Below are positions 919-55,283 of a DNA stretch of 64,000 nucleotides, piece after piece. The number at the start of each line of letters is the position of its first letter. Position 1 is the first letter of the stretch. Under the pieces are notes generated by a model. That model ran no database searches and was not told the origin of the DNA. It saw only the letters and a program-made list of their open reading frames with translations. The position numbers and the translations under genes were made by a program. Location of the stretch: NCBI GenBank assembly GCA_910584165.1, contig CAJTZU010000002.1, positions 141,811-205,810 of the forward strand. Reading direction: 5' to 3'. Source of the DNA: an uncultured Bacilli bacterium (GTDB lineage: Bacteria > Bacillota_I > Bacilli_A > RF39 > UBA660).

Positions 919-3900
919 ATGTTAAGTTATGAAGAATTTAAAAAATTAGCACCAAGTGAAACTGTACAATTTGTAGATTTTGCGCTTCCATATTTGGATT
1001 ATTATGCAAGAGATAGTAGAACTTTAAACTTTAGAAGGCTAGATTCTAGCACAAATAGTTATTATAGTAAGTACTTTTTCTTATTACTTTATGCGATGGC
1101 TCAAAACCCAGAATATGAAACTTTTTTTAGTAAATTCGGTTTTGAAAAAGAGCGTGTAAAAGTAGAAAAAGAAAGTATGACTTCTAATAAAACAAAAGAG
1201 GAATTATTTACTTTAGCAGGAGCAATTATTCCAAACTTTGATGATACTACTAAATATGAGTCTTTGACACCTATTGATATCTTTATACCGATATTAGATG
1301 GCTATTGGAATCGTTGTGGTCAAAGTATTTATGATAGTTTATTTCCAAGATGTCAATTTGGAAACTTTAAAAATGAGTTAGTTAGTTATAATCAAGGTAT
1401 TAAGGCAGAACAAGAAAGATTTTTAGAACAAGGAATATATGGAAATTTACCAATTACAGTTATTTCTTATTTAGAAACAGCTTCTAAGATAAGAAGTTTA
1501 TTATTTCAAAAAGTAAATAGTACGCAAAACGAAATTTTAAAAAAATTAGAAGAAGATATTGTTCCTATATCTTTAGTTTTAGCTACTTATTATTATAAAG
1601 ATACTCCAATTTATGTAGAAGAAAATGTAAGTGAACAAACCGCTATTAAAGAATTTTTATCAACAAAAGGAATTACTTTAGACAAGATTCTTCAAAATTT
1701 ATCTATTAGTATGGGAGTAAGAGAAGTGTCTGAAACTTCAAGGAACTTAATTGCTATTAAAAATTTATATCAAGAATATTGTAGTGAAGGTTATTTTCAT
1801 GGAAAAGAGCAGGCTAGTGTCTCTGTTCGTGGAATATTAGAGAATGTTTTTAACCGTGAATTTACAGATAGTGTAGCAGTAGAGAAATTATTTGCTAAAA
1901 TGAATTGCTATATCGGAATGTTTGAGCATTTTGATCAAAATATTACACAATATATAGAAACACAAAGACGTAATTATTCTGCTGAGTATGTTAAAAGCTT
2001 TTATGGAGATTTATCAAAAGAAGCTCGTGAATTTGCAGATTTTACTGCTAAGATTTATCTTTTATTATTACAGAAAATGAAGGATAATAAGCATAATTCT
2101 AAATTGTTATTTGCAGAGGATGATGCAGATACTTTAGCGCTTTTAATAGCCACTTATTATTTTGATGGTGATGTTAGTGAATTTTTTAAAGATTATGGTA
2201 TTACTTTAGATAAATTACTTACTCTTTTAAATATAACTCTTACAAAAGAAGAGATAGAAACAGTAGAATTAAATCAAAAAGTATTAGTGGACCGTTATAG
2301 AAGATTCTTCTATGAAGGTGTTAATAGAGGTAAGGGTGCAAAAAATCTTACCATTAATGACATTGCTCATAATCTTTGTAATAGAAACTTTAATCGTAGT
2401 ATGATTATGGAATCTATTTTCTCTGAATTAACAGATGAGATGGATTTAGAAAGTGATTTCTTAGGACAATTACAAACACACTTAGAGCAAAAAGAACAAA
2501 ACCGTAAAATGAAATTAACACAAAGATTATTCCGTGATATGCCTGTTGAAACAGTAGAAATTCTAGAGAATTCTTCTAGAGTACATACATATTTATTAAA
2601 ACAGTTAAAAGGTTGGTCAGAAGAAGATATAAAATCATTATCTTTATTGTTAGGAACTTTATTATCTTCTAATACAGATGCGAAAGCTTATTTACAATAT
2701 TTAGGATTTAGTGTATCTAGTGTTAGTTCTTATTTAAACATTAATAGTAATGGTCTATTAAATTTCCCTATTGATATAGATTTATTATCAAAAGAATATG
2801 GAAACTATATTTTTGGTGGAAATAATAAAGATAAAAAAAGAGAAGAATTATCTCCTTCCGCACTTGCTAAAAATATTTTTGCAAAAGAAATTAATAATAG
2901 TGTTGCCATTAGTAAATTTTTAGCGCATTTTAATCAAAGCTATAGTGAATATTCAAATTTTGATGAAAACTATCAAGTGTACTTAGAAAAAACGAAAGAA
3001 AGAAAACGAAAAGAAGAAGCAGAACAAGTTATTCGTTCTTACTCTTCAGCAGATTCTTATTTATTCAATGTATTTAAAATTTATCAAAGATTAAAAATAG
3101 AGTTAGAAGAAGGAAGAATTCGCACAACTCTTATAACAAGTGAAGATGATATTAAAGAGTTAAGTATGCTTCTTGGAATACTTTATGGTTCTAATTCTTC
3201 CAATAAATTTTTTGCTAAAAATAATATAACATTAGAGGCTGTTTTAAAAGCTTGTGCTCTTTCTGATTGTGATTTATTAAAAAATCTATATCATGCTAAC
3301 ATAGACTTTTTAGAAGGAAAAGAAGCATTTGGTAAATACTTAGAAAAAGATTCTCCTAATTATAGAGGAAGAAGAACAGAAGATGACTTTGCTAAAAGAA
3401 TTTTTGATACAAGTATTAATGAAAGTATGCTTTTAGAGAATTTAGCGGTACAATTAGGTGCTAACTATGACATATTAAAAGAAGAAGTAGAAACAGGAAA
3501 AGATTATGAATTATCACTTACTATAGATGATAGAATTGCTTTATTATCAGGAGAAGCAGTAGATACTTTGGATTTAAGTGATATTAAAAGTGTATTGCAT
3601 TTTGGTAATTCTTTATCTGTCCATTCTAAATACATTCATGATGAGCTTCCAAAATTAATGTTAAGTGATGTACATCAAGCTTCTATTGATACTATTAATG
3701 GTATTATTAATAGGGTTTGTGAAAAGGAAGAAAATCAAGTATCACAAAAGAAAGGATGGTTTGCTAGATTATTCTCTGTTTCTGTAGATGAACCTTCTTC
3801 ACCAAAGTATGTATTAAATCCAGGAGCAGTAGAAGAATTAAAAGTAGCTATCGATACGAACATTTCTACTTTATCAAAGGAATTATTAGGATATGATGCT

Positions 3901-4578
3901 ATTCGTAAATATATTGAAGTTTATAGAAGAAAAAATAGAACACATTACATGGTAGCAACCGATACAGTTGCTAAAATTCAAGAAGAATTAGGAACCTTAG
4001 ATCCACATAAAGATGAAGAATATGAAAGGTTCTTAACGGCAAGTTCTAGACTTCAAATTATGACAGATAAGTCTAATCGTTTTGCAACTACGAATCATTT
4101 AATGCAACAAGAATTATTAAAAGTAAATCAAGCTATTGTTAATCATTTTATTACGATTAATGCTCTTGAAATGGCAAGAGATGATTTACTTCCATTAGTA
4201 GGTTCTGAGCTTGCTTTAGGACAAGGTAGAAGTACAGAAAATCAATCTTTAGAATTATCTCAAAATGTTATGCAATTATTCCAGTCTTTATTGGATAGGA
4301 ATGTTGACAGTGCTGTAGAAAATATGGAACAACTTAGACGCTCTAATCTATCTTCTGGAATATTTGAATCATTAAATAGGGATATTCAAGTATATTTGCA
4401 AGGTTTAAATCAAGCAGGGCATATTGAAGAGCGTATAGAATGTTTAGATATTGACCAAGTAAATGTAGAGACACCACAAGCACCAGGACTACCAAATATG
4501 GGAGCTATTAATTTAACACTCACTCCAGATATACCAAAACAGAAAAAATTAGGTACATTACCAAGTCAAAAACAATAG
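919..4578 (+). CDS. Large hypothetical cytoplasmic protein (1219 aa) with degenerate internal helical repeats
   Basis: Long ORF with a GGGGG RBS and no signal peptide. Recurring modules such as GITLDKILQNLSIS, GITLDKLLTLLNITLT, NNITLEAVLKACALS and LSLLLGTLLSSNTDAKAYLQYLGF. Confidence 0.7.
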   Translation: MLSYEEFKKLAPSETVQFVDFALPYLDYYARDSRTLNFRRLDSSTNSYYSKYFFLLLYAMAQNPEYETFFSKFGFEKERVKVEKESMTSNKTKEELFTLAGAIIPNFDDTTKYESLTPIDIFIPILDGYWNRCGQSIYDSLFPRCQFGNFKNELVSYNQGIKAEQERFLEQGIYGNLPITVISYLETASKIRSLLFQKVNSTQNEILKKLEEDIVPISLVLATYYYKDTPIYVEENVSEQTAIKEFLSTKGITLDKILQNLSISMGVREVSETSRNLIAIKNLYQEYCSEGYFHGKEQASVSVRGILENVFNREFTDSVAVEKLFAKMNCYIGMFEHFDQNITQYIETQRRNYSAEYVKSFYGDLSKEAREFADFTAKIYLLLLQKMKDNKHNSKLLFAEDDADTLALLIATYYFDGDVSEFFKDYGITLDKLLTLLNITLTKEEIETVELNQKVLVDRYRRFFYEGVNRGKGAKNLTINDIAHNLCNRNFNRSMIMESIFSELTDEMDLESDFLGQLQTHLEQKEQNRKMKLTQRLFRDMPVETVEILENSSRVHTYLLKQLKGWSEEDIKSLSLLLGTLLSSNTDAKAYLQYLGFSVSSVSSYLNINSNGLLNFPIDIDLLSKEYGNYIFGGNNKDKKREELSPSALAKNIFAKEINNSVAISKFLAHFNQSYSEYSNFDENYQVYLEKTKERKRKEEAEQVIRSYSSADSYLFNVFKIYQRLKIELEEGRIRTTLITSEDDIKELSMLLGILYGSNSSNKFFAKNNITLEAVLKACALSDCDLLKNLYHANIDFLEGKEAFGKYLEKDSPNYRGRRTEDDFAKRIFDTSINESMLLENLAVQLGANYDILKEEVETGKDYELSLTIDDRIALLSGEAVDTLDLSDIKSVLHFGNSLSVHSKYIHDELPKLMLSDVHQASIDTINGIINRVCEKEENQVSQKKGWFARLFSVSVDEPSSPKYVLNPGAVEELKVAIDTNISTLSKELLGYDAIRKYIEVYRRKNRTHYMVATDTVAKIQEELGTLDPHKDEEYERFLTASSRLQIMTDKSNRFATTNHLMQQELLKVNQAIVNHFITINALEMARDDLLPLVGSELALGQGRSTENQSLELSQNVMQLFQSLLDRNVDSAVENMEQLRRSNLSSGIFESLNRDIQVYLQGLNQAGHIEERIECLDIDQVNVETPQAPGLPNMGAINLTLTPDIPKQKKLGTLPSQKQ

Positions 4579-4598
4579 AATTTCTCTATTGTTTTTTT
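4571..4598 (+). terminator. Rho-independent terminator
   Basis: AACAATAGA-...-TCTATTGTT hairpin enclosing the stop codon, followed by TTTTTTT. Confidence 0.65.
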
Positions 4599-4722
4599 AT
4601 GTAAGTATCTTGTAAGACTCTTATAGTTTTATGAGAAAGAATTTATAATGATATATGAATAGTGTATGATAATTAAGATAGAGAGATGATAGTTATACAC
4701 TGGAAAAGAAGGAGGTGAAGTT

Positions 4723-5382
4723 GTGGAAAAAAATAGAAGTTCAAAAATTCTTGCCATTATTGCTCTTTTAGTATCAGCAATCGGTTTATCGGTAGGTTTT
4801 GCAGCATTTTCGCAAACATTAACAATCAGATCTAGTGCTACTGTAAAACCAAATGAGTCAGACTTTAAAGTAGTTTTTTCATCAAGCGGAACAGTAGTTG
4901 AAACAAATCCTGTTATAGCAGTTGCTACTCCAAGTACTCTTAATGAAAAAACAAATCCTGGTTCTATTGTGAATGCAGGTGATCCTAAAATTACAGGTTT
5001 AGGTGCAGAATTTTCAGCACCAGGTCAAAAGGTTGAATATACTTTTTATGCAGCAAATATAGGTGAATATAATGCCTTTTTAAGAAATATCACTTTTGAG
5101 AATTCAGGTAAAGGAAGTTCTCATAGAGTTTGTACTGCTAAAGAGGGTACTACTAATTCATTAGTTCAAGAAGCTTGTAGTAGTATTATATTAACTGTAA
5201 AAGTTGGAGAAGGGTTAGCAACTAATTCTTCTATTACAGGAATTACTGGTCATTCTTTAAATAAAGGTGCTTTCGAACCAGTAGTTGTAACAATTGAATA
5301 TGCGGCTGATGGAGCAAGAGCAGATGGAGATTTTTCTGTTGATTTTGGAAATATAATCTTAGATTATAGTTCAGCAAATTAA
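4723..5382 (+). CDS. Secreted TasA/BsaA-like protein with a SipW-cognate signal peptide
   Basis: GTG start after AAGGAGGTG. The N-terminus is KILAIIALLVSAIGLSVGFAAFSQTL: a hydrophobic core followed by the G-F-A-A-F-S cleavage-region motif typical of SipW substrates (TasA, CalY, camelysin). Confidence 0.65.
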   Translation: MEKNRSSKILAIIALLVSAIGLSVGFAAFSQTLTIRSSATVKPNESDFKVVFSSSGTVVETNPVIAVATPSTLNEKTNPGSIVNAGDPKITGLGAEFSAPGQKVEYTFYAANIGEYNAFLRNITFENSGKGSSHRVCTAKEGTTNSLVQEACSSIILTVKVGEGLATNSSITGITGHSLNKGAFEPVVVTIEYAADGARADGDFSVDFGNIILDYSSAN

Positions 5383-5399
5383 TAATATTTATAGTGAGA

Positions 5400-5424
5400 G
5401 GCACAATATTGCTTTGTGCCTTTC
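5400..5424 (+). terminator. Weak hairpin / attenuator between the substrate and peptidase genes
   Basis: GGCACAA-TATTGCT-TTGTGCC stem followed by TTT. Confidence 0.35.
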
Positions 5425-5457
5425 CTATATTTGCACAAGACTATTTTGGAGGTAAAA

Positions 5458-6585
5458 ATGAAAAGGGGTTATAAAAAATTATTAATATTAGAAATTATTT
5501 TATTCTTCGTTTTAATCTTAAATAGTTTTGTATCAAGTATATTAAGTAGATATAATTTAATTTTAGCATTAATAGCCGTTTTAGGTATTTTTAAATTATT
5601 TTTTGGTTTTGAAAAAGATAGATATCGTTATGTAAGAGATATTATTTTTGAAATAGCTATTTTCTTATTAGTATTTTTTCTTTTATATTATTTATCAGGA
5701 TTGATTATTACTTTTGCAAAAACAGAAAATTATTTAACATGGTATGGATTCTCTAATTTTATTATTCCAATTATATTGACAATTATTTTAAAAGAAATTG
5801 CTAGATATATGATTTTACAAAAAGCTGAAGGGAATAATTTCTTATTAATAACCACATGTATTTTATTTATATTTTTAGATGTTAGTAATGCAATCTATTA
5901 TAATAATTTTTCATCTAAATATGATTCGTTTCTATTTGTAGCACTTTCTTTATTGCCAGCTATAAGTACTAATATTGCGTGTACTTACATTAGCAAAAAA
6001 GTGGGTTATAAACCTGTCATATTTTATTTAATTATTGTTAATATATATAGTTATTTAATGCCAATTATTCCTAATCCAAGCGAATATATAAGTTCTATGG
6101 TCCAATTTTTATTACCAATAGCTTTAGGCTATAGAGTTTATTCTTTCTATGAAAAAGAAAAGGATAAAGAAGTTTCTAGAGATTATAATAAAAGAAGAAT
6201 ATTGCCATTAATTATTCCAACTATTGTTATCATGATTCTTATTTATTTTGTTTCAGGGTACTTTCATTATTATGCAGTAGCAGTAGCAAGTAATAGTATG
6301 TCACCAAAAATTTATCGAGGTGATGTTGTAATTATTGAAAAAATAGATAAAAATTATGATTTATTAGAAGAAGGTCAAGTAATTGCTTATAAATACGATG
6401 GTATTATTATTGTACATAGATTAGAGCGTATTTTAAAACAGGATGGTAAATATTATTTTTATACAAAAGGAGATGCCAATTCAAAAGAGGATAATTGGAC
6501 AGTAGAAGAGGATATGATTATAGGGACTGTTAATCATAAAATATCTTATATTGGGCTTCCAACTGTCTGGTTGAATGAGTTATAG
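5458..6585 (+). CDS. sipW: Polytopic membrane domain fused to a SipW-type (S26B, archaeal/ER-like) signal peptidase I
   Basis: The C-terminal ~130 aa (SNSMSPKIYRGDVVII...YTKGDANSKEDNW) match the SipW catalytic Ser box and the KGDAN motif. The N-terminal ~260 aa contain 6-7 predicted TM helices. Likely start is the ATG at 5458 after GGAGG; the ORF track begins at 5416. Confidence 0.7.
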   Translation: MKRGYKKLLILEIILFFVLILNSFVSSILSRYNLILALIAVLGIFKLFFGFEKDRYRYVRDIIFEIAIFLLVFFLLYYLSGLIITFAKTENYLTWYGFSNFIIPIILTIILKEIARYMILQKAEGNNFLLITTCILFIFLDVSNAIYYNNFSSKYDSFLFVALSLLPAISTNIACTYISKKVGYKPVIFYLIIVNIYSYLMPIIPNPSEYISSMVQFLLPIALGYRVYSFYEKEKDKEVSRDYNKRRILPLIIPTIVIMILIYFVSGYFHYYAVAVASNSMSPKIYRGDVVIIEKIDKNYDLLEEGQVIAYKYDGIIIVHRLERILKQDGKYYFYTKGDANSKEDNWTVEEDMIIGTVNHKISYIGLPTVWLNEL

Positions 6586-6597
6586 GAGGTAAATGGT

Positions 6598-7713
6598 ATG
6601 AGAAAGAAAAAAGAAGAGGAATTTAAAGTAGAAGTAACCCAAACTTTGGAGCCACATGAACTAAAGAAAACAGTTTATTTTGGATATAATACAAGATTAC
6701 TATTAAATATTTTAATATGTATTTCTTTTTTAGGACTTGGAATTTTTTATTTAATAGAGTCTATTAATTTTAGCAAGGAAGAAAGTATTCGTTATAAAGA
6801 GAATAGTAGTTTAGATTATAAAGTATATTTAAAAGAAAATGATTTTTATGATACTCCTTATTTAACAAAAGATATGGCTTATATTGCTAGTTTAATTGAT
6901 ACGATTAATATAGACTTTAATTATTTATTTTCGATAGATACAATTTCTAATATGGATTTTTCTTATGGCATTTATGGAAATTTAATTATTGCTGATGAAT
7001 CTGGGGAAAATACTTATTTTGAGAAAGAATATAACTTATTAAATAATAAGCAAGTAAATATGGTAGAATCTAAATCACAGGAAATTAAGGAAAATATTTC
7101 TATTGATTATGGTTATTATAATCGTTTAGCAAATGATTTTAAAATGTCTTATGCAATAGATACGACTAGTTATTTAAAAGTATATTTAAAAATTGATAAA
7201 AAGAACGCAGAAAAAGAAACAAAATTTGATTTAAATGATACAGACGAGTTAGCTATTACTATCCCATTATCAGAGAAGGCTATTCAAATTAAAATGGATT
7301 ATATGAATCTTAATGAAACTAATCAGGTTTTAGCGCAACCAGAAGTAGCAGTAGAGGATATGACAGTATTAGTAATTTCTATTATTTTATTCCTTGTTAG
7401 TATTATTAGTTTTATTAAAATAATTAGATTATTATCTTTATTAAAAGTTAGAAGTTCTAATTTTGATAAATATATTAATAAAATTTTATCAGAATATGAT
7501 AGATTAGTGGTAGAAACAGTTTCTTGTCCAAATTTAACGGATAATAATGTAATTAAAATTAAGAAGTTTGAAGAATTATTAGATGTAAGAGATAATTTAA
7601 AATTGCCAATAATGTATTACTTATTAGTAAAGCATCATAAAGCTTATTTCTATATTAAACATAATAATGATATTTTCCTTTTAACTGTTAAAGCAGTTGA
7701 TTTGGAGAAGTAG
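6598..7713 (+). CDS. Membrane protein of unknown function within the SipW cluster
   Basis: 371 aa with an N-terminal TM (LLLNILICISFLGLGIFYLI) and a C-terminal TM (VLVISIILFLVSIISFIKII). Tightly spaced with its neighbours. Confidence 0.6.
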   Translation: MRKKKEEEFKVEVTQTLEPHELKKTVYFGYNTRLLLNILICISFLGLGIFYLIESINFSKEESIRYKENSSLDYKVYLKENDFYDTPYLTKDMAYIASLIDTINIDFNYLFSIDTISNMDFSYGIYGNLIIADESGENTYFEKEYNLLNNKQVNMVESKSQEIKENISIDYGYYNRLANDFKMSYAIDTTSYLKVYLKIDKKNAEKETKFDLNDTDELAITIPLSEKAIQIKMDYMNLNETNQVLAQPEVAVEDMTVLVISIILFLVSIISFIKIIRLLSLLKVRSSNFDKYINKILSEYDRLVVETVSCPNLTDNNVIKIKKFEELLDVRDNLKLPIMYYLLVKHHKAYFYIKHNNDIFLLTVKAVDLEK

Positions 7714-7716
7714 GAT

Positions 7717-9477
7717 ATGAAAAATAATAAAGCACACTATTTATCAGCTTCTTTAATACTTATTACTATTTGTTTTTTAAGCATTGGGTTCTCTGCTTTT
7801 CAGGAACCTCTATTGATTGACAATGTAGGTGTTACTGTTCGATTTTTGGAAGATATGCGCATAACCGGCATTCAAGTAAATGCTTCTACTGCTGGGGTAG
7901 TTTCTAATTATGAAGATTATAATATACACAATTTAAAAGCTGGCATTTATTTACCAAATAAGGATTCCTCTATTACTTATAAAATAAAAACTACTAATTT
8001 TGGAAATATAGAAATGGGAATTTTTGATATTACAGGTTTACCAAGTAATTTAACTTACGAAATACAAGAATATAATCTAAAAGAAAAGCTTTGTGATATC
8101 AATAAGAAATGTACATTAGGTTCTGAAAAAGATTTTTATTTAACGATTAAATATAAAGAGAATGGTTATGATTCTTCAAAATTGAATTATGATTTTAATT
8201 TAAATGTGGATTTTAGAGGATTTCATAAGATTGTATATATAAATATTAAAAATACTACAAATTATCCAAAAGAAGTAATGGATGGGGATAATTTAGAAAT
8301 TGCATTTGCTACAGATATTCCTGGAAAAGTAAAACTTACTGGTAGTAATTCATATACTTATAATACTAATATATTATCTGTTAACAATGTAAAAGAAGAT
8401 TTAACTGTAGATAGAGTATTCAGATTTTATGAAGAAATTTTGAATAGAAATCCACTATCTTCTGATTGCCCTAGTTTACCTATAACAACAGGTAAAGGGC
8501 AAGGAGCTTCTTTTTGTAAAACGACTGATAATTATGGGGATAGTTATTACTATCGTGGCGCAGTAAAAAATAATAATGTAAAATTTGGAGGTTATTATTG
8601 GAAGATAATAAGAATAAATGGAGATAATACTGTTAGGATGATTTATAATGGCAAAGTAAGTCAATTATCAAAACCATTAGAAAATGGAACAGATGATTCT
8701 TCTACAAATTATACTAATATAGGTTTGGGTATTTTTAATCCAGATGGTCGTGACAATGCTTATATGGGCTATATGTATGGGATGGTTAATGCTACTAGTT
8801 ATCAAGATGCACATGCCAATACTAATTCTAGTACAGCAAAGAGAAAATTAGATAGTTGGTTTCTTAGTAGTGGTTTAAATAATGATTCCAATAAGAAATA
8901 TTTAGCAGATAATTTATTCTGCAACGATAGAAGTGTTTATAGTGAAACTTTATCAAACATGTCTGGTGGAATAAAGCAATTGCCTGTACATGCTAGTGGA
9001 GCAGAAAATTTCCCTGCAGATACAGGAAAAGGGTATGGAAAAAATGTTACTTTTTATGGAACTTATTATCGTATGAGATTTGAATCTCTACCAACAGTAG
9101 CAACACATTATCCTACTTTAAAATGTATAAATAAAAATGACTCATTTACAGTATCAGATACAGTAAATGGAAATGGAGATTTAACTTATCCAATTGGGTT
9201 AATTACTATAGATGAAGCAATATTTGCTGGTTCTGCTAGATTAGTAGAGGACAATAGAAACTATCTATATACTGGATATAGATATTGGGCAATGTCTCCT
9301 GGATTTTATAATACTACTGCCTATATGGGTGGTATGATTCATCAAGGATGGATTAGTTTAGGAGCTCCTGTAACAGATGATAAATATAGATATTATCGAC
9401 CAGTTATCAATATTAAAGCAGAAACTTTTCTGAAATCTGGGGATGGAACGATTAATAATCCTTATGTATTTGAATAA
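7717..9477 (+). CDS. Large secreted protein (586 aa) with a SipW-cognate signal peptide
   Basis: N-terminus is LILITICFLSIGFSAFQEP, the same G-F-S-A-F motif as the 4723 gene. The body is Asn/Tyr/Gly-rich. Confidence 0.65.
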   Translation: MKNNKAHYLSASLILITICFLSIGFSAFQEPLLIDNVGVTVRFLEDMRITGIQVNASTAGVVSNYEDYNIHNLKAGIYLPNKDSSITYKIKTTNFGNIEMGIFDITGLPSNLTYEIQEYNLKEKLCDINKKCTLGSEKDFYLTIKYKENGYDSSKLNYDFNLNVDFRGFHKIVYINIKNTTNYPKEVMDGDNLEIAFATDIPGKVKLTGSNSYTYNTNILSVNNVKEDLTVDRVFRFYEEILNRNPLSSDCPSLPITTGKGQGASFCKTTDNYGDSYYYRGAVKNNNVKFGGYYWKIIRINGDNTVRMIYNGKVSQLSKPLENGTDDSSTNYTNIGLGIFNPDGRDNAYMGYMYGMVNATSYQDAHANTNSSTAKRKLDSWFLSSGLNNDSNKKYLADNLFCNDRSVYSETLSNMSGGIKQLPVHASGAENFPADTGKGYGKNVTFYGTYYRMRFESLPTVATHYPTLKCINKNDSFTVSDTVNGNGDLTYPIGLITIDEAIFAGSARLVEDNRNYLYTGYRYWAMSPGFYNTTAYMGGMIHQGWISLGAPVTDDKYRYYRPVINIKAETFLKSGDGTINNPYVFE

Positions 9478-9507
9478 TACTACATAGAATTATGTAGTAT
9501 TTTTTTG
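9476..9507 (+). terminator. Rho-independent terminator ending the SipW cluster
   Basis: ATACTACATAGA-ATT-ATGTAGTAT hairpin followed by TTTTTTT. Confidence 0.7.
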
Positions 9508-10043: not shown

Positions 10044-10107
10044 ATACTCTACAAAATGTAGAGGAATTAGAAATATTCCTTATGGTATACTTTAGTTGGT
10101 GATAAAA

Positions 10108-10854
10108 ATGAGTATTGGAAAAAGAATTTCTTGTATGAGAAAAAAGAAGAACTTAACACAATCTGCTTTAGCGCATAGATTATATGTAACAGATAAAACA
10201 ATATCTAGTTGGGAGTCTGATAGAACAGAACCTAGTTTAGATATTTTAATGAATTTAAGTGAAATATTAGACTGCTCTGTTTCTTATTTAATGTATGGGG
10301 ATATAGAAAAACTAGATATTGAAACAGAGGTAAAAATCAAATTGACGGAGCAGGAATTTAAACACTTAGATTTTTTACTAAAAAGAGAAGCAGAATATTT
10401 AAAAGAAATTCATCATGTAGATACTTACTATTCTCCGAAACATGAATCTTTTTTAAATCAGGATAAAATTGTAGATTGGTTACGTATTGGCGAGCGAGGT
10501 AGTAAGAAAATATTAAATTATAAACATTGGTATGATGTACATTGTGATGAATATGAAGTTGAAATTAATGATTCTATTAATTTAGATAAAATATTTCATG
10601 CTTTACAATTAGAAAAAGTAGCGATAGTAGATAAAGTAAGGAAAACATATTTTTATCAAAATAAATATGAATTCGCATTAGACAAAGTAAAAGATTTAGG
10701 ATATTTTGTAGAAATTGAAATAAAAAATTATCAATCTTCTGTTATGGAAGAATATGATGCTTTATTAAAAGTAGCCAAATCATTTGAATTAAATTTAGAT
10801 CATATAGATAAAAAAGGTTATCCTTACGATTTAATAGAGCAGAAAGCTTCTTAG
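10108..10854 (+). CDS. XRE-family HTH fused to a CYTH (class IV adenylyl cyclase / triphosphate tunnel) domain
   Basis: The N-terminus (RISCMRKKKNLTQSALAHRLYVTDKTISSWE) is an XRE-type HTH. The C-terminus has an ExExK motif (DIETEVKIKL) and CYTH-like strands. The ORF track starts at TTG 10096; ATG 10108 is more likely. Confidence 0.65.
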   Translation: MSIGKRISCMRKKKNLTQSALAHRLYVTDKTISSWESDRTEPSLDILMNLSEILDCSVSYLMYGDIEKLDIETEVKIKLTEQEFKHLDFLLKREAEYLKEIHHVDTYYSPKHESFLNQDKIVDWLRIGERGSKKILNYKHWYDVHCDEYEVEINDSINLDKIFHALQLEKVAIVDKVRKTYFYQNKYEFALDKVKDLGYFVEIEIKNYQSSVMEEYDALLKVAKSFELNLDHIDKKGYPYDLIEQKAS

Positions 10855-17151: not shown

Positions 17152-17221
17152 TTTTCACCTAAACATTAAAATGTTATAATAAAGAAAATAGAGTATCTGT
17201 TATGAAAATGAGGTGAAGTTC

Positions 17222-20200
17222 ATGGCTTATCGGTATCGAAGATATCAAATATTTAGAAAAAAGTTACCTGTACCAAAAGAAGTATTAAAACGTATTTATA
17301 ATAGAAAAGCAACTATAGAAGATATTATTCAATATGATTTAAAAGATAAAGTGCCTACAGATTGTTTAGACTATAAGTATAGTGAGATTTCTGCTATTGT
17401 TGGAATGGAAGTAGCAGTAGCTTTAGATTGGGATACGATTTTACCACTTCAATCTTATCAGTTATTAAATTGGTTTAGAAACAATAGTGCTTCTAGAGCA
17501 TTAGATTGGAATAACTTATTATATAAAACTATTAAAGAAGAGTATTTTAAAAATCTTTTAGATGGAGTTAGCTCTTATGATATGCTGATTTTTAAACTAA
17601 AAGATAGTTATTCTGATTTCCATTTTGAAAGATTAGGAGAAAAGTTTGAAAAAGCAGTGCCAGAACTTTTCTATGCAACTAGTAAAGAGGCAGCTAGTGA
17701 TTTGTTTTCTAAAAGATTTATGATTAATGACTATATAGAGCATTTTAAAGATTATGTGAAAGCTCCAGAGGATATTGTTAAAGATGCTTTTCAAAGTGAT
17801 GTAGATGTTAGGTTATATCAATTTTTAAATCCTTATTTAAAAAGCGGGAATACTTATGAAGAAGAAAAATTATTGGTTCAACTTGTTTTTAGTAGTAGAT
17901 ATCATTATGAATACGAAAAATATTTAGAAATATTAAATTTTAATCCCGGAATAAGTGCTCATGATTTTTTAGAAAAAGCTTGTTTGCAAAGAATAAAAGA
18001 ACAACATTGGCTAAAACCAAATTCTTACTATATTAGTAAGTATAATATGGGAAAAGAGCACAAGTTTTCTTTTGGGCAGAGTATCGATTATGACTCTTTA
18101 TCATTAGTAGATCAATATCCTGAGTATCGAGTTATTTTTTCACAGTTTTTAAATGGGACTTTGAAGTTTACTTCTTCTATTTCCGATTATGATAGTATAG
18201 AAGCTTATGTTGCTTACTTAATACTAGAATTTAATTTGGAATATGATGGAACTTTACCAGAAAAATTTAAGGAATTATATCCAGAACTTTTTATTACATC
18301 CGATTACAATTTAGCAGATGATTTTTACCGAAAAAAATTAACTCCAGAAATGATTCAAAAAAGACCAGTTTATGTTGAACTTTTAAAAGATAAAAAAGTT
18401 TTTCTCGGATTTAAGGAGCAGGATCTGGTAACATTCATTAAAGCTATTGGAAATGATAAGTTTTTTAAGTTTTGTTTAAAATATGGTTCTCATTTGGTTC
18501 CTGTTACTTTAGAAAATGAAAATCAGACTTATGAGGAAAGATTAGAACAAGAGATTATCGATAGTATTGTACAAGGAAAATGTAAGTATCAAGACTTAGA
18601 AGAGGTAGAAAGTATTACTTCTAAAATACCTAATTATTTTTTGGATAATAGTTTTCCAAAAGAATTAAGAGAGCTTTTTTATAGTGGAGAATTAACTCCT
18701 ATTCTATTAAAAAAAAACCAAAAATGGATTCATTTAATGAAAGATAAGGAGCTTTTTACAGCTTTACAATATCTTCACCGAGATTTATATACTGCTGTTG
18801 GAAAAGAGAATTTCTTGATGTTATGCCAAGGTTACGGAACAGTTATTTCAGATATGTATTTTTTTTCTTATCATTTTAAAGATATGTCAGTAGAAGAAAT
18901 TTTAAAAGAGATAGAGGATAAAATTTATAATCGTATCTATCTTTACCGCATCCCTTATGATGACGATATGCCTATTTCTTTTAAAGAAAAGTACCCACAT
19001 CTTTTTTTACCAGAAACGATTAGCGAGGAATTAAGAACAAAATTTTATAGCAGAGAATTAACTCCTTTAGATTTTGAAGAAAATGATTTTCTATTTTCTT
19101 ATTTTGAAAATCTAGATATTGCTTGTTATCTCAAAGAGGAATATCTTTGGCTAGTAGGAAAAGAATTGCAAAATAATAAAGAAAAATTAAAAATTGCAGC
19201 CTTCTATGGAAAAATTCATACGAAAGATCTTCAAGAAATATTTAAAAAAATTGTATTAGAAAATATTAGTACTCTTAATTTTGATAGAATAGATAATTTA
19301 GCTGATTTATTAGTTACACTTTCTTATTCTAATTCTGGTGAAATTAGAAAATGTAGAGCAGAGCTGGCTAATCAGTTAATCAATCTAGAGAATCCAAAAG
19401 AGAAGTTGGAAAGAATCGAAGATATTTTTTTGGCAAATAATCTTCCAACGGTTGGTAAAGTATTTTTAGTATTTCAAACTTTATATCCTGATTTTAGGGG
19501 ATTTGATTTTAGTGAAGATTCTAAAGTATCTCCAATTTTAAAAAGTAAAACAAACCGAAGTAGAGAAGTTATTATTTTTTCAGATTTATTAAAAATAGCA
19601 TTTGGCTCTAATAATAGGTCTATCAAATCTTATTTAGAAAATATTGAAAATGGCTATAGGACATTTTTACAAATTCAAAATGATCGAATTTCTTTAGAGG
19701 AGTTAGAAGAAAGTGAAAGAACTACTTTATCTATTTTTTTAACCCATTTAAATACTTTATATAATAATACAGAGAAAGGAAAAAAAGAGCCTCATAAATT
19801 ATCTAATGATATAAAAAGAGATGTTAATGATTTTGTATCTCTTTATGCAAGTAAAGAGTTGATAGATTATGATTTACCAGATAGAATTATTAAGATGTTT
19901 TGCCATTTTGCCGGTTTTGATAGTTTTGAAAAGGCAAAGGCGTATGCTACTCAAAAACCTATTTTAGCAGATCAAAGAAATAGAAAGTCTTCTAGAAATA
20001 GTTTTCAGTTAACGCAAGGTGATTTTATTAAAGGAATAAGAGATATTAAATATTTAAAGAGCATATTACAAAATGGTTCTTTAGCTGTAGAATTTTTAGG
20101 AGCTTCTGCTGATAAGGATAGCACACCATTAGATACAGATTTATCACGTATATTAAAAGTAGAAAATTCGATTAGTGAAACAGTTTCTAAAACAGAAGCA

Positions 20201-21451
20201 TCAGGTTATGGCTCTATTTATTTAATACTTAAAAATGATGATAGATTCTGTATTACTAGAAGAAGTTCTTCTGAAGAACAGGGTATAGATGAAGTAGATA
20301 TTAACAAGATAGAGGCATTTTATACAGGCGCTACAGGAAAAGATCATTACGGAATTCGCACTGGATTTGCTTCTTCTGAAATTGATTATATTATGACAAA
20401 AGAATATGATGAAAGAATAGGGTTAGAGATTGCCATGAATGGTTTTTATATTCCTGTTGTAGATACTTCTGGTAATTTGATATTTGCTCCAGAGGATTAC
20501 GATTCTTTAAGGAAAAAAATGTCAGGTTTATCTTATTTTGGAGAGAAAGAATATATATTTTCTCAAAATCTGCATTTTGATGGAATAGAAGAAGTAGTGG
20601 AATCTCTTTCTAGAAATGAAGAAGAGGCTCAAATGAAAAGAGAAGTCATAAATCAAAAGGTTTTAGAGGCAATTGATGAAGTGGGTTTGGGTCTTAAAAC
20701 TGTTATTGATGGAAACTTAAAAGAAGGTACTGTTGAACTAATCGATACTGGCTCAACTGGTCGTGGTACTAATTTACCTCAATCTGGAGATTTTGATTTC
20801 ATTATGAGATTAGATAAAAAAATAATAGCTGACACTCACAAAACGAAAATATTAAAAGAAAAAATATTGCAGAAATTGGGAAAAAATAATTTTAATATGA
20901 TAACGAATAGTGGCGATTTTAGATTAAAGGGTGTTCAATTAGAAGGTTTAGAACAAGCTATCGATATTGATATAACTTTTATTGAGAAGACTGATAAGAT
21001 ATCTTATTCTACTGATATGGCTTTAAGAGATAGACTATTTAGTATAAAAAAGCAAGATAAAAGCAAGTACTCTTTGGTTCTTGCCAATCTTTTGCTTGCT
21101 AAAAAGGTATTGAAAGAAGCTAGTGTTTATAAACCAAATCGTGGCGAAGTCGCGCAAGGTGGTTTAGGAGGAGTAGGAATAGAAAATTGGATTCTACAAA
21201 ATGGTGGCTCTTTTTTAGATGCTGCTAGTAGTTTTTTAGAAGCATCAGAAGGAAAAACTTTTCAAGAATTTAAAGCCCATTATAGTATTTGGGATTTTGG
21301 AGAAAATCATTTTACGGATAGAAATGGTGTTTATCCACATGATGAATTTGTTAGAAACAATATGAGCGAAGAAGGATATTTAAAGATGAAACAGGCACTA
21401 GAACATTATCTTAATCAGTTAGGATATTCTTTTAAAAAGAGAAGGAAGTAA
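17222..21451 (+). CDS. Giant protein (about 1410 aa) with a C-terminal Pol-beta-superfamily nucleotidyltransferase domain resembling cGAS/DncV/OAS-like enzymes
   Basis: GSTGRGTNLPQSGDFDFIM (a GS-x-RGT...[DE]h[DE]h motif) plus a third acidic cluster IDIDI about 53 aa downstream. The N-terminal 1100 aa have no known domain; three YP.LF...FY..ELTP repeats occur. ATG 17222 follows GAGGTGA; the track starts at GTG 17213. Confidence 0.65.
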   Translation: MAYRYRRYQIFRKKLPVPKEVLKRIYNRKATIEDIIQYDLKDKVPTDCLDYKYSEISAIVGMEVAVALDWDTILPLQSYQLLNWFRNNSASRALDWNNLLYKTIKEEYFKNLLDGVSSYDMLIFKLKDSYSDFHFERLGEKFEKAVPELFYATSKEAASDLFSKRFMINDYIEHFKDYVKAPEDIVKDAFQSDVDVRLYQFLNPYLKSGNTYEEEKLLVQLVFSSRYHYEYEKYLEILNFNPGISAHDFLEKACLQRIKEQHWLKPNSYYISKYNMGKEHKFSFGQSIDYDSLSLVDQYPEYRVIFSQFLNGTLKFTSSISDYDSIEAYVAYLILEFNLEYDGTLPEKFKELYPELFITSDYNLADDFYRKKLTPEMIQKRPVYVELLKDKKVFLGFKEQDLVTFIKAIGNDKFFKFCLKYGSHLVPVTLENENQTYEERLEQEIIDSIVQGKCKYQDLEEVESITSKIPNYFLDNSFPKELRELFYSGELTPILLKKNQKWIHLMKDKELFTALQYLHRDLYTAVGKENFLMLCQGYGTVISDMYFFSYHFKDMSVEEILKEIEDKIYNRIYLYRIPYDDDMPISFKEKYPHLFLPETISEELRTKFYSRELTPLDFEENDFLFSYFENLDIACYLKEEYLWLVGKELQNNKEKLKIAAFYGKIHTKDLQEIFKKIVLENISTLNFDRIDNLADLLVTLSYSNSGEIRKCRAELANQLINLENPKEKLERIEDIFLANNLPTVGKVFLVFQTLYPDFRGFDFSEDSKVSPILKSKTNRSREVIIFSDLLKIAFGSNNRSIKSYLENIENGYRTFLQIQNDRISLEELEESERTTLSIFLTHLNTLYNNTEKGKKEPHKLSNDIKRDVNDFVSLYASKELIDYDLPDRIIKMFCHFAGFDSFEKAKAYATQKPILADQRNRKSSRNSFQLTQGDFIKGIRDIKYLKSILQNGSLAVEFLGASADKDSTPLDTDLSRILKVENSISETVSKTEASGYGSIYLILKNDDRFCITRRSSSEEQGIDEVDINKIEAFYTGATGKDHYGIRTGFASSEIDYIMTKEYDERIGLEIAMNGFYIPVVDTSGNLIFAPEDYDSLRKKMSGLSYFGEKEYIFSQNLHFDGIEEVVESLSRNEEEAQMKREVINQKVLEAIDEVGLGLKTVIDGNLKEGTVELIDTGSTGRGTNLPQSGDFDFIMRLDKKIIADTHKTKILKEKILQKLGKNNFNMITNSGDFRLKGVQLEGLEQAIDIDITFIEKTDKISYSTDMALRDRLFSIKKQDKSKYSLVLANLLLAKKVLKEASVYKPNRGEVAQGGLGGVGIENWILQNGGSFLDAASSFLEASEGKTFQEFKAHYSIWDFGENHFTDRNGVYPHDEFVRNNMSEEGYLKMKQALEHYLNQLGYSFKKRRK

Positions 21452-21467
21452 ATTTCCTTCCTTTTTT
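21441..21467 (+). terminator. Rho-independent terminator
   Basis: GAAGGAA-...-TTCCTTC hairpin followed by TTTTTT. Confidence 0.65.
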
Positions 21468-21531
21468 ATGATGAAATAAATTGACATATTTTTTCTTTTT
21501 TGGTATAGTATAGACGATTTGGGGGATTAAT

Positions 21532-23352
21532 ATGAAATATAAACTTATAAAAAAAGTTGCATTAGGACTTGCTGCGACAGCAATTATAACAGTAACATCA
21601 GGATGTCAAGAGAAAGAATCAGATATTCCAAAAACAGCAGTTATAGAAACAGGAGAATTTCAAAATGTGTACGAGGATGAACCTACTTTTGATGCAAGTG
21701 GAGAGTCTGTCACTTATAAAGGTCATGTTTATGCTATAGCGCATGATCCATCTACAGAATATGTTACGAATGAATATACTCCAGTTTCTTATGAAAATGG
21801 GATAAATACAAATCAGTTATTTTTTGTAAGAATAAATGGAAATATTTATTTAGCAACTAAATTAGTTGATAAGAATGAGAATAATATTATTTCAAAATAT
21901 TACGAATTAGCTACAGGTAAATTTTTAGGGCAAACTTTGGCTATAAATTGGTATGCTAGAGCAACTTCTAATATTGAGCAAGTTGTTCCTAAGGGTGGAA
22001 AACCAAAAGTATATAGTGCCACCGTTTCTTCGGAACTATTAGATAATAATTATTTTGATGGGGAATATGGTTATGGAAAGAATATTGTGCCAGAAGCGGT
22101 TATTAATGCTTCTTCTGTGATTTCTGATACTAGATTAAGTAAAGAGCAAATAGATGTATTGTTAACAAATACCTTACTTACTACTAGTTATGTAGAAAAT
22201 TATTTGTATGATGGATTAGTATCTATGCCAAAAGAAGATTATTATTTTATTCCGTTAAGATATACGGATGGATTTGGTATAGTTACTTGGGGCTTTTTTG
22301 CAGGCTTTAGAGGTGAAACTTCTTACTATCATAATCAAATGCAGGAGATTACAATAGCATCAGAAGAGGGAGAGAAAACGTTAGTTGGTTACTTTGGAAG
22401 CACTAATAAAAATGATAATGGATATAACTATGTTTATGATATTTCATCTGGAACTTTTGTAGAAGTTTCTAGTTGTAATATTATTAGTAAAAAAGGAATT
22501 GTTTCTAAAATCACAGTAGGAGAAATTAGAAATCGGTTTTTTCCATCTTTAACAGAATCTTATCCTATAGAATCTTTAAAAGTTATCTCAACTAAAAACC
22601 TTGAAGGAGATGATGTATTTGAAGATTACTATATTGTTATGCGTGAAAAGTATGTTAGTGGAGATACTTATAGATATCAGGTTTTGGGGGAAGAAGAATT
22701 TGTATCAGTTGCTGGCGCTTATGATGGAGCTCATTTAGGAATTGCTAAGAATGGTTCTTTTAAATTAACAACAGCAGGAGAATATGATGGAAGGATGATG
22801 CCTTTACAGGAATGTCTTACGAAAAATGGTTTATCTCATTACGAAAAAGAAACTTATACAGATGAAGAACTTACTTTATTACTTGTAAAATTAAGAGAAA
22901 AAGAATTAGATTTAGGAGATAAGCAACCATTAACAGAATCTCGTACAAAAATAAATGCAGAAGATATCATAGTAGTAGATACTACTAAAGAAGATAGTGA
23001 TTATGTACTTGTTGGAAGTGAGCAAAGATATTATGTATTAGTACCTTATGAGATGTCAGAGGAAATACAACAGCAATATCCTAATAGAAAGTACTATGAA
23101 GTTTTTGACCATAGTGCATTATGTGGTTTATCGGTAGAAGAAGGATACTTAAGAATAGATACTCTTGGTCATGATTTTTACTATGTTTATAAGATGGACG
23201 GAGAATTAAAGGGGATATCAACTTTCCATGATGTTTTAGCAGAAAATGGATTAGAAGATTCCGTTAGGGATGGATATTATCCTGCTGATTTACAAATTTT
23301 AGTAAATAAGCTTAATAATAAAGGAAAAGAATATATTAAGAAAGCTCAATAA
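21532..23352 (+). CDS. Lipoprotein (606 aa) of unknown function
   Basis: Signal peptide with a lipobox (LAATAIITVTSGC). Asn/Tyr/Gly-rich body. Confidence 0.7.
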   Translation: MKYKLIKKVALGLAATAIITVTSGCQEKESDIPKTAVIETGEFQNVYEDEPTFDASGESVTYKGHVYAIAHDPSTEYVTNEYTPVSYENGINTNQLFFVRINGNIYLATKLVDKNENNIISKYYELATGKFLGQTLAINWYARATSNIEQVVPKGGKPKVYSATVSSELLDNNYFDGEYGYGKNIVPEAVINASSVISDTRLSKEQIDVLLTNTLLTTSYVENYLYDGLVSMPKEDYYFIPLRYTDGFGIVTWGFFAGFRGETSYYHNQMQEITIASEEGEKTLVGYFGSTNKNDNGYNYVYDISSGTFVEVSSCNIISKKGIVSKITVGEIRNRFFPSLTESYPIESLKVISTKNLEGDDVFEDYYIVMREKYVSGDTYRYQVLGEEEFVSVAGAYDGAHLGIAKNGSFKLTTAGEYDGRMMPLQECLTKNGLSHYEKETYTDEELTLLLVKLREKELDLGDKQPLTESRTKINAEDIIVVDTTKEDSDYVLVGSEQRYYVLVPYEMSEEIQQQYPNRKYYEVFDHSALCGLSVEEGYLRIDTLGHDFYYVYKMDGELKGISTFHDVLAENGLEDSVRDGYYPADLQILVNKLNNKGKEYIKKAQ

Positions 23353-23377
23353 AAAGACTAGTTAGGGTCTTTTTTTG
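23353..23377 (+). terminator. Rho-independent terminator
   Basis: AAAGAC-...-GTCTTT hairpin followed by TTTTTT. Confidence 0.5.
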
Positions 23378-23455
23378 TAAAGTAATTTTATTATATTGAA
23401 ATTATCCTTTTTTGATGAAATTTATGGTATAATAAATAAAAATAGGAGGAACTGT

Positions 23456-55212: not shown

Positions 55213-55283
55213 AACGATTAGATTATGTAGGGCTTATCAATAAAATGATAGGCTCTTTTTTTATTGGAAAGAAAGGAGAAACA

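Follow-up and report, generated by a model that had tools for sequence, protein, structure and literature searches.

A window of 64,000 nucleotides (contig CAJTZU010000002.1, positions 141,811 to 205,810) from an uncultured Bacilli bacterium holds a cassette of four genes, g1 to g4, that probably makes an extracellular fiber of the TasA superfamily, either a bundling pilus or a matrix fiber like those of the AbpX loci and of the haloarchaeal Tat-fimbriae (Tafi). One basis of this reading is the gene content, which matches that of Tafi and AbpX loci: one or more pilins, a signal peptidase (SPase) of the TIGR02228 type, a DUF5305 protein, and a tip protein. Gene g1 codes for a small secreted protein, g2 for an SPase fused to a polytopic membrane domain, g3 for the DUF5305 protein, and g4 for a large secreted protein (Table 1). 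A sequence-only reading of this DNA had suggested a biofilm matrix or pilus module by analogy with TasA and BsaA. A fiber is still the best interpretation, but given the identity of g3, the closest analogues are the archaeal Tafi and the AbpX loci and no longer TasA or BsaA.

The peptidase domain of g2

The C-terminal part of g2 passes the TIGR02228 model (sigpep_I_arch) with 73.2 bits, over a cutoff of 51.85, and g2 is also above the Pfam cutoffs of Peptidase_S24 and Peptidase_S26. A profile made from 96 diverse homologues, the set on which all conservation values for g2 are based, aligned with human SEC11C/SEC11A at an E value of 5e-20, with the SGSMEP, IVHR, and TKGDNN blocks in line. Foldseek comparison of the AlphaFold2 model returned 7p2q/7p2p, structures of the eukaryotic signal peptidase complex (SPC), at E 6e-6. 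Five residues are at least 90% conserved: S280 (in SNSMSP), H320 (in IVHR), R321, D339 (in KGDAN), and D345. The catalytic Ser and His, whose loss had been named beforehand as an outcome that would refute the sequence-only reading, are therefore both retained. Judged by its sequence, the catalytic domain is an SPase of the endoplasmic reticulum (ER)/archaeal type (family S26B, SipW/SEC11-like), with a predicted Ser/His/Asp site rather than one with Lys. The earlier description of a SipW-like S26B peptidase at the C-terminus of the protein thus holds at the level of TIGR02228 but not at that of the Bacillus SipW equivalog, since NF046067 gave 50.8 bits where its cutoff is 190.

Hydropathy analysis of g2 gave seven to eight hydrophobic segments and an anchor. 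In the AlphaFold2 model, a linker rich in Lys and Arg, at amino acids (aa) 235 to 247, precedes the anchor helix at 249 to 266, and a beta-rich peptidase domain follows. Because eight helices come after a basic N-terminus, the linker is predicted to be in the cytoplasm and the peptidase outside. The fusion itself and the length of about 375 aa were correctly read from the sequence, but the membrane domain had been given six to seven transmembrane (TM) helices, and the model has eight, plus the anchor.

Some relatives of the peptidase are unusual. In P0214 (812 aa) and P0155 (458 aa), long unrelated C-terminal extensions stand in place of the last part of the peptidase domain or break into it; one of these extensions resembles a metallophosphoesterase/5′-nucleotidase region, and the two proteins may be assembly chimeras or true fusions. 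An 89%-identical copy of the low-GC Bacilli peptidase occurs on a contig labeled "uncultured Muribaculaceae" (L001, CAZRIC010000038.1), which is probably mis-binned.

The membrane domain fused to the peptidase

Pfam has no family for the N-terminal domain of g2. The AlphaFold2 model has a mean predicted local distance difference test (pLDDT) score of 82.8, mostly 85 to 95 within this domain, and places its helices at residues 3-24, 32-48, 59-84, 95-123, 127-148, 154-182, 185-200, and 209-234. When we searched 1.84 billion representative sequences with the N-domain, we obtained 608 clusters at 50% identity. Nearly all of them are about 375 aa long and match at residues 1 to 245, so the fusion of this domain to the peptidase is a family and not an accident of gene calling. 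The few clusters with a source name are annotated as "signal peptidase I" and come from metagenome-assembled genomes of Bacilli or Clostridiales. A single-sequence search of the N-domain against PDB sequences found nothing.

By Foldseek, the best match of the N-domain to a solved membrane protein is the CAAX protease Rce1 (4cad), over 260 to 266 columns, with a template-modeling score of 0.47 to 0.50 (normalized to Rce1), a Foldseek probability of 0.96 to 0.99, and 14 to 17% identity. Among the homologues, E113 (99%) and R116 (100%) are conserved on helix 4, an acidic residue at position 141 (92%) on helix 5, and N172 (94%) on helix 6. In Rce1 the FxxxH motif lies on TM5, and F137-x-x-x-D141 of g2 sits on helix 5 as well. 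Active CAAX-type proteases carry EExxxR, FxxxH, and HxxxN/D motifs (PMC12260438), of which EExxxR is on TM4 and HxxxN on TM7 of Rce1 (PMC11980579). In g2 this catalytic set is reduced to E113-x-x-R116 and F137-x-x-x-D141. No His is conserved in aa 1 to 270, and in the whole protein the only alignment column in which His exceeds 20% is that of H320, in the SPase site. The conserved polar residues of the domain thus fit the Rce1 reading by position, not by chemistry. Because the placement of the Glu, the Arg, and FxxxD is kept and the conserved His is gone, the domain looks like a catalytically degenerate CPBP fold, although the fold likeness is weak and should be taken as a lead, not as proof. 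A regular expression for canonical CPBP proteins (EExxxR...FxxxH...HxxxN/D) found none in the window or in the 12 fetched loci. An exosortase/archaeosortase-like identity of the domain was rejected, there being no conserved Cys or His.

Three points weigh against a CPBP origin. The likeness is carried by a single Foldseek match, with E 0.07 to 0.08 and a root mean square deviation of about 7 Å; none of the 96 homologues matches the CPBP/Rce1 family (PF02517; Abi) at E ≤10; and the spacing in g2 is E-x-x-R where the canonical one is E-x-x-x-R.

Could the domain be an active protease after all? With a variant site of Glu113, Asp141, and Asn172, it would act as a CPBP/Rce1-type intramembrane protease that degrades the released signal peptide or cuts the pilins again, and g2 would hold two proteases in one chain. 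Its best structural match is, after all, Rce1, and the Glu, the Arg, the acidic residue, and the Asn of helices 4 to 6 are kept across the homologues down to about 30% identity, pointing to a polar site inside the membrane that has a function. Still, we consider such activity improbable: both catalytic His (of FxxxH and HxxxN) are gone, the Pfam CPBP model is matched by no member of the family, and the degenerate CAAX-like proteins SpbR, SpdC, and LnsB are non-catalytic (PMC12260438).

SpbR of Staphylococcus aureus offers a different role for such a fold. It is a degenerate homologue of type II CAAX proteases with the motifs HELYMR, FIYLD, and QIVAI, and it physically binds the SPase SpsB via a TM helix and an extracellular domain and inhibits it (PMC12260438). 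The g2 counterparts of its motifs 1 and 2 are KEIARY and FIFLD. The two proteins, which we liken by motifs alone, share a nearly identical motif 2, and both keep the Glu and Arg of motif 1 and lose the His.

The DUF5305 protein

The g3 protein matches DUF5305 (PF17231) with 40.4 bits, over a cutoff of 29. It had been described as bitopic, but hydropathy analysis gave two TM segments, at 35 to 53 and 255 to 273, and the predicted layout is a cytoplasmic N-terminal tail, a TM segment, an extracytoplasmic domain, a second TM segment, and a cytoplasmic C-terminal domain. A single-sequence search of g3 against PDB sequences found nothing. In eight of nine loci a DUF5305 gene stands immediately 3′ of the fused peptidase, and the family is also matched by the g3 counterparts in L003, L006, L010, L011, and L012.

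The literature on DUF5305 is short and is all about fibers. In the haloarchaeal Tafi it is TafG, which adjoins TafD, the peptidase required for processing of the pilin TafA and for fiber formation (PMC11821415, PMC12337348). AbpX loci have a DUF5305 protein under the name "SPase I accessory protein"; in some cases it forms one chain with the peptidase, and a comparison of its topology with that of the eukaryotic SPC has been made (doi 10.64898/2026.01.04.697558). By analogy, g3 is a putative SPase accessory of the TafG type.

The two secreted proteins

The secreted ORFs (open reading frames) of 219 aa (g1) and 586 aa (g4) are where the sequence-only reading had placed them, on the plus strand and with the special signal ends that it had noted. 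The N-terminus of g1 ends in ...AIGLSVGFAAFSQT and has a single hydrophobic segment, aa 9 to 27. Its predicted signal peptide spans aa 1 to 27, and the −3/−1 rule predicts a cut at VGFA↓AFSQ, followed by the conserved N-terminal strand AFSQTLTIRSSATV. The N-terminus of g4 reads ...FLSIGFSAFQEP (also written ...CFLSIGFSAFQEP); the same rule predicts a cut at IGFS↓AFQE, with the strand AFQEPLLIDNVGV after it. Of the window's ORFs of 80 aa or more, only g1 and g4 carry the motif G[FY][AS]x[FL][STNQ] at the N-terminus. The claim that the two are SipW-cognate substrates held in part: the signal-peptide end is common to both, but the likeness to the TIGR04088 class is at the level of a motif (aromatic, small, x, aromatic).

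We found 468 homologues of g1. Nine residues are invariant in 120 of them (G25, F26, F29, S30, L33, I35, P43, C137, and C152), and apart from the two Cys, they cluster around the junction of the signal peptide and the mature protein. Of these, F29, S30, L33, and I35, which directly follow the predicted cut, form an alternating hydrophobic pattern. This pattern suggests that the mature N-terminus of g1 is an amphipathic donor strand, lying next to the site of a dedicated SPase. The AlphaFold2 model of g1 is a confident all-beta sandwich (pLDDT 89). The isoelectric point (pI) of g1 is 4.9 and its Asp plus Glu content 9.9%; the homologue in L003 is more acidic (pI 4.2, 17%).

The g4 protein (pI 6.2) consists of the signal end SIGFS↓AFQEP, a pilin-like N-domain at about aa 27 to 170, a linker domain, and a C-terminal domain of about 320 aa (about aa 265 to 586). 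The C-domain has 4567 homologues. Of 39 that were aligned, 13 match DUF6273 (PF19789), with a best E value of 2.6e-5; g4 itself does not. The g4 family profile found nothing meaningful among PDB sequences, so by sequence the C-domain has no solved relative. Elsewhere, C-domains of this type follow N-domains with either a GF[AS]AF-type signal or the classical SipW-type signal SYAYFT, and in P0509 the C-domain stands behind a bona fide Peptidase_M73/TasA domain with the classical SYAYFT signal. A signal for a dedicated peptidase, a pilin-like domain, and a variable globular domain fit a subunit that stands at the fiber end or tip and carries a binding domain. We therefore regard g4 as a putative minor, tip, or nucleator subunit. 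In two relatives, P0401 and P0453, the C-domain of about 320 aa is tandemly duplicated, giving proteins of about 800 aa, and P0453 combines it with a Listeria-Bacteroides repeat (Flg_new).

A fiber held together by covalent cross-links, with the peptidase needed for maturation only, is a further candidate. The model for it is BsaA of Clostridium perfringens, which is reported to depend on a SipW-type peptidase and to form intermolecular isopeptide-linked polymers (PMC11580942). We hold this to be very improbable for the present cassette, in which neither g1 nor g4 is similar to isopeptide or SpaA-type domains and there is no sortase, and in which the conserved N-terminal strand, in register with those of AbpX and TasA, points to strand complementation.

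Conservation of the cassette

The order of pilin or pilins, polytopic SPase, DUF5305 protein, and large variable protein is found in eight of nine independent loci, down to about 30% identity. The nearest relative, L002, has a fused peptidase 82% identical to g2 and is fully syntenic, with the same flanks. The same order surrounds fused-SPase homologues of 27 to 64% identity in different neighborhoods (L003, L006-8, L009, L010, L011, and L012). In L003 (64%), the genes encode a pilin of 238 aa, a peptidase of 376 aa, a DUF5305 protein of 530 aa, and a large protein of 670 aa; PcrA and LigA lie upstream and a GGDEF gene two genes downstream of the cassette. L006-8 (30%) has four small pilin-like genes before the peptidase and DUF5305 genes, in a spore-former context. 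The small proteins that precede the peptidase and DUF5305 genes are of 272 aa in L010, 208 and 192 aa in L011, and 189 and 208 aa in L012, and the large proteins that follow are of 4391 aa (a beta-helix protein), 401 aa, and 1379 aa, respectively; in L012 a SpaA-domain protein is next. In two loci the identity is 27%: L009 has a protein of 199 aa, the peptidase, and a DUF5305-like fragment, and L004 has the C-terminus of a pilin upstream of the peptidase and a GGDEF gene downstream in place of DUF5305. The identities for L006-8, L009, and L004 are for the N-terminal domain only.

The number of small paralogous subunits per locus ranges from one to four, and they share the N-terminal strand. 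The motif h-[GSA]-[FY]-A-[AT]-[LF]-[ST]-x-x-L-x-[IV] is found in these small proteins and in most of the large proteins encoded downstream, and the pattern h-x-x-x-L-x-I is present in the pilin-like genes of L006, L009, L010, L011, and L012. Because the N-terminal motif is confined to g1 and g4 in the window and the gene order recurs in unrelated contexts, the arrangement of the cassette is beyond chance.

Genes for GGDEF diguanylate cyclases lie close to the cassette in L003 (13531-15561) and L004 (1493-2932), and none lies beside the cassette of the window. Diguanylate cyclases have been described near bacterial abpX loci (doi 10.64898/2026.01.04.697558).

Layout of the locus

The window has a G+C content of 29%. 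The four ORFs are co-oriented at 4723-9477, between two hairpins with T-runs, and are separated by 75 nucleotides (g1-g2), 12 nucleotides (g2-g3), and 3 nucleotides (g3-g4). The longest ORF for g2 begins at GTG 5416, a start that we rejected. The ATG listed in Table 1 is preceded by a ribosome-binding site (GGAGG) and gives a protein of the same length as more than 100 full-length homologues, and for these two reasons we take it as the start.

Table 1. Features of the cassette and its boundaries (window coordinates)
Feature	Position	Strand	Description
Left terminator	4568-4596	+	Perfect 12-bp stem + T7; -10.6 kcal/mol, z = -6.7, 0/200 shuffles as stable
Promoter-like site upstream of g1	4642-4670	+	TTTATA-17-TATGAT; consensus scan, 9/12 matches
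g1	4723-5382	+	219 aa; GTG start behind GGAGG
Intergenic hairpin after g1	5390-5429	+	-21 kcal/mol, z = -6.3; weak U-tract after it; terminator scan also positive
g2	5458-6585	+	375 aa; ATG start behind GGAGG
g2, N-domain (aa 1-245)	5458-6192	+	Eight TM helices; candidate Rce1/CPBP-like fold, degenerate motifs
g2, C-terminal part (aa 246-375)	6193-6585	+	Predicted basic cytoplasmic linker, anchor TM 249-266, extracytoplasmic ER/archaeal-type SPase I domain
g3	6598-7713	+	371 aa; DUF5305 protein
g4	7717-9477	+	586 aa; large secreted protein
Right terminator	9476-9501	+	Perfect 11-bp stem + T7; -10.5 kcal/mol, z = -4.5, 0/200 shuffles as stable

The cassette had been described as a terminator-bounded unit of four genes. 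The terminators are real, with none of 200 shuffled sequences as stable as either, but the unit is not a simple operon, as a conserved hairpin follows g1. The left hairpin is the terminator of an upstream gene for a protein of 1219 aa and marks the left boundary of the cassette, and the first bases of the right terminator overlap the stop codon of g4. A consensus scan missed both flanking terminators because their stems are AT-rich. The promoter-like site upstream of g1 is weak evidence, as the consensus scan gave fewer such sites in this region than in shuffles.

The hairpin in the gap between g1 and g2 is much stronger than the flanking terminators (-21 versus about -10.5 kcal/mol). In the window, L002, L003, L006, and L011, the last pilin gene has a stable hairpin behind it; the position is conserved, the sequences diverge, and the U-tracts in these five loci range from weak to canonical. 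The hairpin is likely a partial terminator or an mRNA-stabilizing element that gives an excess of g1.

The upstream ORF of 1219 aa (919-4578) has no signal peptide and no match in Pfam, NCBIfam, PADLOC, or PHROG. Its counterpart of 1225 aa is in the same position in L002 and is missing from L003, so it is probably outside the system, and on these grounds and that of the lacking signal peptide we rejected it as a member. PADLOC and PHROGs scans of g1 to g4 and of this ORF gave no defense or phage family, just S24/LexA-type cross-matches to the peptidase domain, and a reading of the cassette as a defense (Abi) system or prophage was rejected on this basis.

A fiber or plain export

A number of results weigh against a fiber. 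Neither g1 nor g4 has a Pfam or NCBIfam family, a sub-threshold match of g1 to DUF7507 aside. The top PDB match of the g1 model is indeed the TasA fiber (8aur_A), but it is not significant (E 0.014, Foldseek probability 0.97, template-modeling score 0.37), and nor are those lower in the list, the Saci_0406 thread of Sulfolobus and the FimA and CS20 pilins. The g1 family profile found no chain among PDB sequences, Peptidase_M73 (PF12389) has no g1 match, and the TIGR04088 model of the SipW-cognate signal did not match the N-termini of g1, g4, or their L003 counterparts at E ≤10. In hhalign comparisons, the probabilities with and without the signal peptide were 96.9% and 28% for the g1 family versus g4-type N-domains, 80% and 1% for g1 versus TasA-like N-domains, and 95% and 36% for g4-type versus TasA-like N-domains. 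The profile link of g1 to the TasA family is thus transitive, via the g4-type N-domains, and driven by the signal peptide. Because the probabilities drop after trimming, we claim no sequence homology for the mature domains, and the likeness of g1, g4, and TasA-like proteins in these domains is suggestive only. The hhalign probability for g1 versus AbpX is below 5%, the template being a single sequence. At position +4, g1 has Gln where AbpX has the acidic residue called critical for Ca-mediated strand complementation (doi 10.64898/2026.01.04.697558); g4 has Glu there. Ten TM helices are described for the AbpX-locus SPases and nine are counted in g2, and the two are likened by description, not by sequence. 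The cassette has no cell wall anchor (LPXTG or SLH) and no sortase. Finally, the polymer, the cleavage, and the complex are all deduced from gene and protein sequences.

The cassette may instead be an export and processing module for surface proteins that do not polymerize, with g4 as a stand-alone adhesin or enzyme, g1 as a small partner or a cell-surface protein, g2 and g3 as mere providers of a specialized removal of signal peptides, and no fiber. The weak links of g1 to TasA and AbpX once the signal peptide is removed, the lack of an anchor or sortase, and a g4 without family annotation would all suit such a module, and the large downstream proteins are so variable (401, 586, 1379, and 4391 aa) that they look like adhesin cargo. 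We nevertheless think it unlikely. In plain secretion an SPase selects its substrate by positions −1 and −3, and the alternating hydrophobic pattern that directly follows the predicted cut, the most strongly conserved part of g1, would not be needed. Against an export module also stand the one to four small paralogues of each locus, which have the N-terminal strand in common, and the conserved attenuator-like hairpin after the small-subunit gene, which fits a structural subunit made in high copy. The same gene set makes fibers in Haloarcula, Natrinema, and Pyrodictium (PMC11821415, PMC12337348, doi 10.64898/2026.01.04.697558).

Proposed assembly of the fiber

If the cassette does make a fiber, g1 as the major and g4 as the minor subunit would be exported by Sec and would remain anchored in the membrane through a signal peptide ending in h-G-F-A/S. 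The outward-facing Ser-His-Asp domain of g2, held on helix 249-266, would then cut after h-G-F-A/S. This would free the amphipathic strand of g1 or g4, which could enter the beta-sandwich of a neighbor by donor-strand complementation and so build the polymer, a step that we propose because of the analogy with residues 28 to 38 of TasA and W2 to I12 of AbpX. With the same strand, its pilin-like domain, and its DUF6273-related C-domain, g4 may be a TapA-like nucleator or a tip adhesin. The adjacency of g3 to g2, together with the fusions reported elsewhere, suggests that the two form a complex, as proposed for TafG and TafD. The hairpin after g1 may end most transcripts and thereby provide g1 in excess over g2, g3, and g4.

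The N-domain of g2 could be a degenerate Rce1/CPBP-like module at which pilin signal anchors are docked or gated for the peptidase domain, as a counterpart in cis of SpbR. Together, g3 and the eight-helix domain would then form a membrane platform that recognizes or gates this anchor. An SpbR-like role of the fused domain is a tentative idea, and we would not count on it. A broader proposal, which we regard as doubtful, is that CPBP pseudoproteases generally bind the TM anchors of SPases and control the choice of substrate and the timing of the cut, with the fused module and DUF5305 coupling cleavage to strand insertion. If this is true, the SPase complex is the assembly machine of a chaperone-free Gram-positive pilus, and the partnership of CPBP proteins and SPases is general and old. 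In view of the finding on SpbR and SpsB, the g2 fusion could serve as a "Rosetta stone" for a regulatory principle of wider reach.

TasA-like fibers are main structural proteins of biofilms and have been studied in Bacillus, a few clostridia, and extremophilic archaea. The cassette and its hundreds of relatives show that uncultured gut Bacilli and Clostridia with small genomes commonly carry a related system. In the gut, such a cassette, which has a pilin family to itself and a tip that is variable and adhesin-like, could shape adhesion and aggregation. The fused peptidase provides a testable handle on how dedicated SPases recognize their substrates and on how chaperone-free donor-strand fibers are started at the membrane.

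Other features of the window

The region 34000-62700 looks like an integrative conjugative element. It encodes a surface protein with SpaA and thioester domains (37268-39997), an SNF2/ResIII helicase of 2631 aa (41442-49337), a MobA/VirD2 relaxase (55245-56633), and a type IV secretion system coupling protein (58467-60287). Three consecutive long ORFs at 17213-25882 (1412, 606, and 828 aa) match no Pfam family; the start of the 606-aa protein is lipoprotein-like (...VTSGCQEK). At 10096-10854, an HTH_3 domain (Cro/CI type) is fused to a CYTH domain in a protein of 252 aa. The CatA-like acetyltransferase at 242-853 scores 95.8 bits, so far under the equivalog cutoff of 270 that it cannot be called a chloramphenicol resistance gene with confidence.

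Comparison with known systems

AbpX was described in Pyrodictium abyssi, with homologues in Thermoproteota, Bacillota, and Chloroflexota (doi 10.64898/2026.01.04.697558, January 2026). Like the cassette, AbpX loci combine a small acidic pilin with two Cys, a polytopic SPase of the TIGR02228 type, DUF5305, and minor or tip subunits, and they often have diguanylate cyclases nearby, as in L003 and L004. AbpX itself has a signal end of ...GLTYA↓QWSETLSLSATIS and a donor strand from W2 to I12, and its clade has a low pI (about 4) and about 15% Asp/Glu (doi 10.64898/2026.01.04.697558). LTYA↓QWSETLSLSATIS of AbpX and VGFA↓AFSQTLTIRSSATV of g1 are in register, with a common aromatic residue at +2, S at +3, T at +5, and L at +6. 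In this register g1 reads A-F-S-Q-T-L-T-I-R-S-S-A-T-V and g4 A-F-Q-E-P-L-L-I, both with the aromatic residue at +2. The hhalign alignment of the g1 family with AbpX is collinear over 157 columns, and the blocks PG..v.ft..N.G, aaC..v.l, and L.pGeFE...v.IE are aligned, so that over the body of the two proteins the likeness stays at the level of motifs. The cassette differs from AbpX loci in its host, a low-GC uncultured gut Bacilli lineage that is neither a thermophile nor a member of the Clostridia, in the absence of an LPXTG/SLH anchor, and in a tip that carries a DUF6273-related domain.

The Tafi system (pilins TafA/TafE, peptidase TafD, and TafG) likewise has a dedicated ER/archaeal-type SPase beside DUF5305, donor-strand pilins, and tip or minor subunits (PMC11821415, PMC12337348). 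Its pilins, however, have Tat signals, whereas the signals of the cassette lack a twin arginine and look like Sec signals. In TafD, which has four TM helices, the peptidase domain is N-terminal and a second extracellular domain is present, whereas g2 has eight extra TM helices N-terminal to its peptidase. The pilins of the two systems have no detectable sequence similarity.

The cleavage region of TasA, TWA↓AFND, resembles GFA↓AFSQ of g1, and the cleavage regions of g1 and g4 are in register with the TasA donor strand, which starts at residue 28. This strand is formed by residues 28 to 38 at the mature N-terminus, and TapA, a larger second substrate of SipW with a similar N-terminal strand, nucleates the fiber (PMC9674648). 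In the tapA-sipW-tasA operon of Bacillus subtilis, as proposed for our cassette, neighboring genes code for the two substrates of a dedicated S26B peptidase (PMC9674648, PMC10151520). The differences are that SipW has no polytopic domain, that the operon has no DUF5305 and another gene order, and that g2 scores below the SipW equivalog cutoff.

SEC11 is the protein that the catalytic domain of g2 most resembles, and in the eukaryotic SPC (SEC11A/C, SPC22/23, SPC25, and SPC12) accessory membrane subunits with luminal and cytosolic domains also surround a catalytic subunit with a single anchor. Neither g3 nor the g2 N-domain has sequence similarity to these accessory subunits, and the SPC is a general secretion enzyme. 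SpbR and SpsB differ from g2 in being separate proteins, and SpsB is a bacterial P-type (Ser-Lys) SPase, not one of the ER type. SpbR inhibits the cleavage of LtaS and has no link to a pilus (PMC12260438).

The sequence-only reading had held that neither the membrane fusion nor the large second substrate is known from characterized systems. This is valid only in part, because the AbpX preprint mentions SPases with ten TM helices, which occur with DUF5305, minor pilins, and tip proteins, and because TapA is a larger second substrate, but the preprint gives the ten-TM SPase one sentence and leaves the extra domain unanalyzed (doi 10.64898/2026.01.04.697558). The closest described systems are thus the AbpX-type loci and the haloarchaeal Tafi, with tapA-sipW-tasA of B. 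subtilis as the classical and more distant one. What the cassette adds to them is a fused family of wide distribution among gut Bacilli and Clostridia, an unannotated family of pilins, a tip related to DUF6273, a conserved attenuator-like hairpin, and, fused to the peptidase, a His-less domain that looks like Rce1 and SpbR.

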